From assembly GCF_048403405.1 (NCBI RefSeq), contig NZ_CP183129.1: 64,000 nt of DNA; one strand, given 5' to 3'. The stretch comes from Escherichia coli. GTDB lineage: Bacteria > Pseudomonadota > Gammaproteobacteria > Enterobacterales > Enterobacteriaceae. Below the pieces are notes generated by a model. It had not been told where the DNA came from. It worked only from the letters and a program-made list of their open reading frames with translations, and did no database searches. A program made the position numbers and the translations under genes. Positions 42,692-45,600 of this stretch are shown here, one piece after another (the stretch's first letter is position 1; every line of letters begins with the position of its first letter).

Positions 42692-45600
42692 CAGCGTGCT
42701 TGTCCCTGTCTCTTGTGGGAACAGGGCTTGCTAATGCTGATGATTCGCTTCCTTCCAGTAACTATGCGCCGCCCGCAGGGGGAACATTCTTTTTGCTTGC
42801 TGACAGCAGTTTTAGCAGCAGTGAAGAGGCGAAAGTGCGACTGGAAGCGCCGGGGCGTGATTATCGGCGCTATCAGATGGAAGAGTACGGCGGCGTGGAC
42901 GTTCGCCTGTATCGTATTCCTGACCCGATGGCATTTTTGCGCCAGCAGAAAAACCTGCATCGCATTGTGGTGCAACCGCAATATCTGGGCGACGGGCTGA
43001 ACAATACGCTGACCTGGCTGTGGGATAACTGGTACGGCAAATCTCGCCGCGTGATGCAGCGTACTTTCTCTTCTCAGTCACGGCAGAATGTGACTCAGGC
43101 GTTACCCGAATTACAGCTCGGCAATGCCATTATTAAACCTTCCCGTTATGTACAGAACAGCCAGTTTTCACCGCTGAAAAAATATCCACTGGTGGAACAG
43201 TTCCGTTACCCACTATGGCAGGCTAAACCGGTCGAGCCGCAGCAAGGGGTAAAACTGGAAGGCGCATCCAGCAATTTCATCTCGCCGCAGCCGGGTAACA
43301 TCTATATTCCTCTCGGCAAACAAGAGCCGGGACTGTACCTCGTCGAGGCGATGGTCGGTGGATATCGGGCGACGACGGTGGTATTTGTCTCTGATACCGT
43401 GGCGCTTAGCAAAGTGTCGGGTAACGAGCTCCTGGTGTGGACCGCGGGTAAAAAAACAGGGTGAAGCGAAGCCGGGATCAGAGATCTTGTGGACTGACGG
43501 TCTTGGCGTGATGACCCGCGGTGTGACCGATGACAGTGGTACCTTGCAGTTACAACATATATCGCCGGAACGTTCATACATTCTGGGTAAAGATGCTGAA
43601 GGCGGCGTTTTTGTCTCCGAGAATTTTTTCTACGAAAGCGAAATTTACAACACCCGCTTGTATATCTTCACCGACCGCCCTCTGTATCGCGCAGGCGATC
43701 GTGTTGATGTCAAAGTGATGGGCCGCGAGTTCCACGACCCGTTGCATTCATCCCCCATCGTTAGCGCCCCGGCGAAGCTTTCAGTGCTGGACGCCAACGG
43801 CAGTCTGTTGCAAACCATCAATGTCACGCTGGATGCGCGTAATGGCGGGCAGGGGAGTTTCCGCCTGCCAGAAAATGCCGTCGCCGGAGGTTATGAGTTA
43901 CGCCTGGCTTACCGCAAACAGGTCTATAGCAGCAGTTTTCGCGTAGCCAACTACATCAAACCACATTTTGAGATTGGCTTAGCCCTCGACAAAAAAGATT
44001 TCAAAACTGGCGAAGCGGTCAGCGGCAAACTGCAACTACTCTATCCGGATGGCGAACCGGTAAAAGATGCCAGCGTGCAGTTGAGTTTGCGCGCTCAGCA
44101 ACTTTCGATGGTTGGTAACGATTTGCGTTATGCCGGACGTTTCCCGGTGTCGCTGGAAGGTAGCGACGCTGTTTCTGACGATAAAGGCAATGTAGCGTTA
44201 AACCTTCCCGCCGCCGATAAACCGAGCCGCTATTTACTGACCGTCTCCGCCAGCGATGGCGCGGCATATCGTGTTACTACTACCAAAGAGATCCTCATTG
44301 AACGCGGTCTGGCGCATTACTCTCTAAGCACCTCCGCACAATACAGTAATAGCGGCGAGTCGGTTGTTTTCCGTTATGCCGCGCTGGAATCTTCAAAGCA
44401 GGTGCCTGTTAAGTATGAGTGGCTACGCCTGGAAGACCGAACAAGCCACAGCGGAGATCTACCTTCTGGTGGCAAATCCTTTACCGTCAATTTCGATAAA
44501 CCGGGTAACTACAATCTGACGTTACGCGATAAAGACGGCTTAATTCTCGCCGGGTTAAGCCATGCAGTCAGCGGTAAGGGCAGCACGTCGCATACTGGTA
44601 CGGTAGATATTGTGGCAGATAAAACGCTGTACCAGCCTGGCGAAACCGCGAAGATGCTGATTACCTTCCCGGAGCCAATTGATGAAGCATTATTGACGCT
44701 GGAACGCGATCGCGTTGAACAGCAGTCGCTGCTATCGCATCCGGCAAACTGGCTGACGTTACAACGTTTAAACGATACCCAGTATGAAGCCCGCGTACCG
44801 GTGAGCAATTCCTTTGCGCCTAATATCACTTTTTCGGTGCTGTATACCCGTAACGGTCAGTACAGTTTTCAGAACGCCGGGATCAAAGTTGCCGTTCCCC
44901 AGCTGGATATCCGGGTGAAAACGGACAAAACCCATTACCAGCCTGGTGAACTGGTCAATGTCGAATTAACCTCGTTGCTGAAAGGTAAACCTGTTTCTGC
45001 GCAGCTAACGGTTGGCGTGGTCGATGAAATGATCTATGCGCTGCAACCGGAAATCGCGCCGAATATCGGCAAATTTTTCTATCCGCTGGGGCGTAACAAT
45101 GTGCGTACCAGCTCCAGTCTTTCGTTTATCAGCTACGACCAGGCGCTCTCCAGCGAGCCGGTTGCGCCAGGCGCGACTAACCGCAGCGAGCGGCGAGTAA
45201 AAATGCTTGAACGTCCACGGCGTGAAGAGGTGGATACCGCGGCATGGATGCCGTCACTCACAACTGATAAACAAGGCAAAGCGTATTTCACGTTCCTGAT
45301 GCCTGATTCGTTAACCCGTTGGCGCATTACAGCCAGAGGGATGAACGGCGACGGGCTGGTCGGGCAGGGGCGTGCTTATCTTCGTTCGGAAAAAAATCTC
45401 TACATGAAGTGGAGTATGCCAACGGTGTATCGCGTGGGCGACAAACCGGCGGCAGGACTGTTTATCTTCAGTCAGCAGGATAACGAACCGGTGGCGCTGG
45501 TGACTAAATTTGCAGGCGCTGAGATGCGCCAGACGCTGACGCTGCACAAAGGGGCGAATTATATTTCGCTGACGCAGAATATTCAGCAATCTGGCTTGTT

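Follow-up and report, generated by a model that had tools for sequence, protein, structure and literature searches.

The 64,000-base stretch of Escherichia coli DNA analysed here, referred to as the window, carries ubiG, gyrA (37607–40234), yfaA, yfaT, yfaS, yfaQ, yfaP and then atoB. The neighbours of yfaS are DUF2138, Pfam MagC, DUF2300 and YfaP_C genes, all on the same strand, an arrangement characteristic of a mag-like operon. Within this operon the yfaS reading frame is interrupted at a run of seven adenines (Table 1).

Table 1. Position of the yfaS frame break and of the surrounding operon genes in the window
Feature	Position	Strand	Remarks
yfaA (DUF2138)	40383..42071	+	First gene of the mag-like operon, intact; coordinates mapped from L001
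yfaT (DUF1175 / Pfam MagC)	42068..42691	+	Intact; overlaps the K-12-type yfaS start
N-terminal yfaS fragment	42625..43464	+	279 aa from the K-12-type ATG (284 aa from ATG 42610); ends AGKKTG-TGA; from translation
A7 homopolymer	43450..43456	+	Close relatives all have A6; the additional A shifts yfaS by +1; from alignment with MS 69-1, K-12 and others
Remaining yfaS (residues ~276–1534)	43451..47230	+	+1 frame; MG2, bait-region and A2M domains; without its own signal peptide
Premature TGA	43462..43464	+	In the shifted reading, two codons past the A7 run; from translation
yfaQ (tandem DUF2300)	47231..48880	+	Start codon directly adjoins the yfaS stop
yfaP (YfaP_C)	48885..49661	+	Last operon gene, intact

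Pfam assigns to intact YfaS an MG2 domain (residues 344–440; 9e-19), the bait-region domain A2M_BRD (661–806; 6e-17) and an A2M domain (871–953; 6e-12). A scan for C.EQ found the CXEQ thioester motif to be absent from the 1534-aa protein, which has two cysteines, at residues 25 and 1189. The NCBIfam search returned no family, and the PDB sequence search gave nothing beyond a marginal match to complement C5. Given its MG2, bait-region and A2M domains, the lack of CXEQ and the MagC-, DUF2138-, DUF2300- and YfaP_C-type neighbours, intact YfaS is, judged by its sequence, a thioester-less type II bacterial alpha2-macroglobulin of the MagD/YfaS class. This class has been characterised as MagD and the mag operon of Pseudomonas aeruginosa (PMC5764988, PMC3735191). 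YfaS resembles MagD of magABCDEF in carrying the same domains without CXEQ (PMC5764988, PMC3735191), and yfaS likewise lies beside a MagC-family gene and DUF2138, DUF2300 and YfaP genes. Protease trapping after bait cleavage, in a periplasmic complex, has been reported biochemically for P. aeruginosa MagD only (PMC5764988), and our literature search found no biochemistry or function of E. coli YfaS and no account of yfaS inactivation. Unlike the gene for MagD, yfaS is interrupted in this genome, and the complex is predicted to lack its central component.

The start of yfaS differs between annotations. RefSeq PGAP uses a GTG (window 42715) that yields 1504 aa and drops the hydrophobic N-terminus, whereas the ATG annotated in K-12 (window 42625) lies 90 nt upstream, yields 1534 aa and creates a 67-nt overlap with yfaT. 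The PGAP start is probably set too far downstream.

Elsewhere in the window, gyrA encodes S83L (TTG, 37853–37855) and D87N (AAC, 37865–37867), the classic fluoroquinolone-resistance pair; both codons are wild-type in strain CFSAN061763 and in the draft genome L023 (GCA_002486975.1). Coordinates mapped from the annotation of E. coli MS 69-1 place an IS1-family element at ~25482–26179, abutting a LysR-family regulator gene (285 aa here vs 292 aa in IS1-free relatives), and an ISNCY transposase at ~16662–17621, beside a truncated hypothetical gene.

The reading frame at the A7 run

The run is found in the window as ggtaaaaaaacaggg, within the wider sequence gaccgcgggtAAAAAAAcagggtgaagcg, and a k-mer representing the A7 allele is GCGGGTAAAAAAACAGGGTGA. 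The preliminary description had recognised the run itself correctly and had placed it at 43449–43455, one base to the left of its true position. It had also read the upstream frame as ending in AGKKTG-stop, and translation confirms this: from an ATG at 42610 or 42625 the frame runs into the premature TGA, and the downstream frame, at +1 relative to it, is open as far as 47230. Removal of one A in silico fuses the halves into a single ORF of 1534 aa from ATG 42625, in agreement with the alpha2-macroglobulin ORF of roughly 1530 aa that had been proposed. The repaired product matches the intact YfaS of strain CFSAN061763 at 100% identity. The ancestral codons at the run are GGT AAA AAA CAG (G-K-K-Q), that is, a coding A6. 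Since the window contains 12 homopolymers of at least 7 bases, the A7 run is unremarkable as such; what is significant is the break of the frame relative to relatives that are all A6 here, and not the length of the run.

The first recognised domain of intact YfaS begins at residue 344 and the frameshift occurs after residue ~277. Because the frameshift lies upstream of every recognised domain, the allele is predicted to be null. A Pfam search of the 279-aa N-terminal product returned no family, whereas existing records list MG2, A2M_BRD and A2M for the C-terminal fragment as for the intact protein.

The run in close relatives and across the species

Over its whole length, the window differs from the complete genome of E. 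coli MS 69-1 (NZ_CP146675.1) by 0 SNPs and two indels: the extra A in the yfaS run, and 10 bp in atoE (51299–51308) that are missing from MS 69-1. There is no further single-base indel in the 64 kb, every remaining A6 or T6 run is unchanged, and the other 11 runs of at least 7 bases (two A8 and nine of 7) are equal in both genomes. MS 69-1 has A6 at the run and an intact yfaS annotated as 1504 aa. A6 is likewise present in CFSAN061763, in K-12 and in the 25 long contigs that carry the exact YfaL allele of the window, and yfaS is intact in all of these (25/25 of the contigs) except K-12. Within its clone the A7 is confined to this genome, and the 0 SNPs and two indels relative to MS 69-1 place the change on a terminal branch. 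A single intact ORF in the relatives, a run changed by ±1 and a repair that restores an identical protein are together what a pseudogene formed by a homopolymer indel displays. The preliminary description was right in that A6 is ancestral and A7 splits one alpha2-macroglobulin ORF, the close relatives having A6 with a single gene. Of the "fixed pseudogenising mutation" that it considered, the gene break stands and the fixation does not, the allele being fixed in no sampled lineage.

The atoE copy of MS 69-1 is annotated as frameshifted. That of the window matches the intact CFSAN061763 gene, and the alignment is ungapped at the 10-bp site. The region 29900–35750 (nrdA to yfaL) is ~1% diverged from CFSAN061763 and the region 36–64 kb nearly identical to it, the pattern of a mosaic produced by recombination. 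In yfaL the proline-rich linker shows an in-frame 24-bp difference (35711–35734) from CFSAN061763 and one of 6 bp from L023.

The comparison with other E. coli genomes that the preliminary description had called for was made with blastn queries of 38–42 nt, built on the 18- and 17-nt flanks common to K-12 and the window, against the RefSeq complete-genome set, of which the window is not a member. Of 5,426 complete E. coli genomes, 5,364 yielded the site. With exact flanks, A6 was present in 3,623 genomes, A5 in five and A7 in none of the 5,364; a further 1,741 genomes had differences in the flanks, all rows shown being of A6 length. JGI metagenome contigs were A6 at the site in 7/7. A6 is the norm, and there is no species-wide switching of tract length. 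These queries replaced an earlier census by 101-bp megablast, which had reached 474 genomes only, probably on account of the exact 28-mer seed needed in the flanks and likely because the A7 run was masked.

A second run in yfaS, naturally an in-frame A7 (window 45390–45396), served as a control. It is A8 in eight and A6 in six complete genomes, so that 14 of ~5,372 are off-length and yfaS is broken there in ~0.26% of genomes. The longer run varies more, as expected from plain slippage mutation or error and not from a dedicated switch at 43450.

The A5 alleles occur in 08-3914, CEC13004, 93_161312, A14 and NCTC9038, and RefSeq calls all five yfaS copies "frameshifted". The first three, STEC-sized genomes from two laboratories, combine A5 with one common yfaA allele, and their A5 is most likely a real inherited deletion. 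NCTC9038 has a frameshifted yfaA besides its A5 yfaS, a double frameshift that suggests an error-prone assembly. The A5 strains share with the window the homopolymer and the mechanism, a ±1 change in run length. They differ from it in that theirs is a one-base deletion on a K-12-like haplotype and that at least three of them share descent, whereas the window has an insertion private within its clone.

Exact look-up of truncated YfaS products recovered two other carriers of A7. The first, L006, is an ENA metagenome scaffold of 1,111 bp. Its sequence agrees fully with the window for 996 nt, the A7 among them; its last 115 nt hold 9 SNPs, with the haplotype switching 80 nt after the run. This scaffold may be chimeric, or it could represent a separate, unrelated event; a literature search on its BioSample (SAMN17215450) yielded nothing. 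The second is the 286,631-bp contig of the draft L023, which has A7, shares only 98.6% identity with the window across 20.6 kb and belongs to the genome with wild-type gyrA mentioned above. Independent instances of A7, whether true events or base calls, thus number two or more, and its presence in the scaffold and in an unrelated draft indicates that slippage at the run recurs.

An exact look-up of the 1239-aa C-terminal fragment matched A6 scaffolds with N-gaps plus one contig edge and was uninformative. In two ENA metagenome scaffolds (L007 and L008; locus 4869–4967) N-gaps with duplicated flanks lie ~80 nt downstream of the run and produce spurious gene calls for a 1239-aa "C-terminal fragment" that mimic a split yfaS. 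In a further locus, L027 (GCA_041227305.1, JBGFDR010000002.1; between positions 1234 and 5000 of the locus), the run is A6 and its distance to yfaQ exceeds that of the other loci by 2 bases. The gene calls there include no yfaS protein, which is another independent yfaS lesion or an error.

K-12 MG1655 has the same gene in the same operon, yfaA-yfaT-yfaS-yfaQ-yfaP beside gyrA, and its yfaS is likewise inactivated, being the annotated pseudogene b4500. It is not the same event: K-12 is A6 at the run, and what breaks its gene is an in-frame stop, codon 1368 of 1534; aligned with an intact allele, it shows no indel. The K-12 gene keeps ~89% of the protein, the allele of the window ~18%.

Origin of the extra A

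We consider it rather probable, with modest confidence, that a +1 strand-slippage insertion at the coding A6 occurred on the terminal branch as a real mutation and gave a null yfaS. Strand slippage would have converted A6 to A7 in the genome's own lineage, and translation of yfaS would stop after ~277 native residues plus T-G. The predicted product is a 279-aa stub, targeted to the periplasm and devoid of the MG2, bait-region and A2M domains, in other words a null allele. Some 3.8 kb of yfaS mRNA would stay untranslated. As the yfaS stop is followed immediately by the first base of yfaQ, this length of untranslated message probably reduces the expression of yfaQ and yfaP, through lost translational coupling and Rho polarity. 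Full-length YfaS might be made in trace amounts at most, by spontaneous +1 ribosomal slippage on AAA-AAA-A.

The sequencing error that the preliminary description had named as an option is a live alternative. No assembly error is more common than the gain or loss of one base in a homopolymer, and a private error would give the same pattern, with A6 in every nearest relative. That the strain is truly A6 with an intact yfaS, and the extra A a homopolymer miscall, is a serious possibility that we nevertheless hold to be somewhat improbable. It would account for A6 in all close relatives, including MS 69-1, which is otherwise the same over 64 kb bar the 10-bp atoE indel, and for the absence of A7 from the 5,364 genomes. 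The two indels against 0 SNPs also form an indel-heavy ratio that is unusual for real divergence, and ±1 errors do strike this locus in error-prone assemblies, NCTC9038 with its frameshifted yfaA and yfaS being an example. A miscall is harder to reconcile, however, with an assembly that shows no other single-base indel in 64 kb and has its two A8 runs and nine further runs of 7 at the lengths seen in MS 69-1. The scaffold L006, from an independently assembled metagenome, also carries this A7 within 996 nt of the window's haplotype, and real slippage alleles are found at the tract in other lineages (the three related A5 strains and L023). On balance the extra A is somewhat more likely to belong to the DNA of the strain than to be an assembly error.

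A functional switch, either a phase-variable tract or a recoding site at which slippage of RNA polymerase or the ribosome yields full-length YfaS from the A7 template, is very improbable. The sequence would lend itself to recoding in that a +1 shift on AAA-AAA-A lets tRNA-Lys re-pair perfectly; ±1 variants recur in several lineages, and non-programmed frameshift suppression of 1–10% has been measured in E. coli reporters (PMC10861913). Neither the frequent tract-length polymorphism of a phase-variable contingency locus nor a frame break conserved among orthologues is seen, however: the A7 break is in no other complete genome and A5 in five of the 5,364, the JGI contigs are uniformly A6, and it is the longer in-frame A7 of yfaS that is more variable, with its 14 off-length genomes, as plain mutation predicts. 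A −1 ribosomal shift leads to the wrong frame, and −1 programmed frameshifting is ruled out by the frames, the downstream ORF being +1. Selection against transcriptional slippage becomes evident only at ~9 A/T in many bacterial genomes (PMC1088944), and slippage of E. coli RNA polymerase at runs produces insertions and almost never deletions (PMC5574713). Rescue by RNA polymerase is unlikely, since the run is 7 nt long compared with ~9 and the deletion that would be needed is the kind almost never made. The runs of Thermus dnaX (A9), Shigella mxiE (T9) and an IS element (A9) resemble that of the window in placing an A/T mononucleotide run at a frame junction. These recoding runs are ~9 nt long and their break is conserved in homologues (PMC1088944), whereas the window has 7 nt and a break shared by 0 of 5,364 genomes. 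The "slippage-prone on/off tract" of the preliminary description was not borne out, and the run as phase-variable tract or conserved recoding site is largely refuted as a conserved mechanism.

That the two ORFs are normally separate genes, the outcome named beforehand as contradicting a broken gene and one to which the ORF map of the window and nothing else points, has a negligible probability and is rejected. Close relatives are annotated with a single protein of 1504 aa (1534 aa if the upstream ATG is used), one alpha-2-macroglobulin feature spans the site in every listed genome, and the junction falls in the N-terminal region, upstream of MG2 as the first recognised macroglobulin domain.

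Implications for the Mag-like module

Independent yfaS lesions comprise the nonsense codon of K-12, A5 in an STEC lineage, the A7 of this genome and of an unrelated draft, and the altered lengths of the second run in 14 genomes. To these come the 2-bp insertion of GCA_041227305.1 and the truncated forms known from Shigella flexneri. Their number could be taken to mean that loss of yfaS is repeatedly selected: in some niches a Mag-like defence complex of the periplasm would undergo convergent adaptive inactivation, preferentially through breaks at coding A runs. We think this unlikely when set against neutral decay. The change described here is an ordinary homopolymer frameshift in a non-essential gene, already known as a pseudogene in K-12, and involves no new mechanism whether it is a mutation or an error.

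Its significance is local and concerns whether the Mag-like module works in this strain. If the A7 is an assembly error, the module is intact; if it is real, claims of a working module in the strain would be wrong, and a fluoroquinolone-resistant strain of clinical type would lack the protein at the centre of its periplasmic, Mag-like protease-trap module. For the species, yfaS emerges as a gene that nearly all E. coli carry and that is sporadically disrupted at homopolymers, in roughly 0.1–0.3% of genomes per run.
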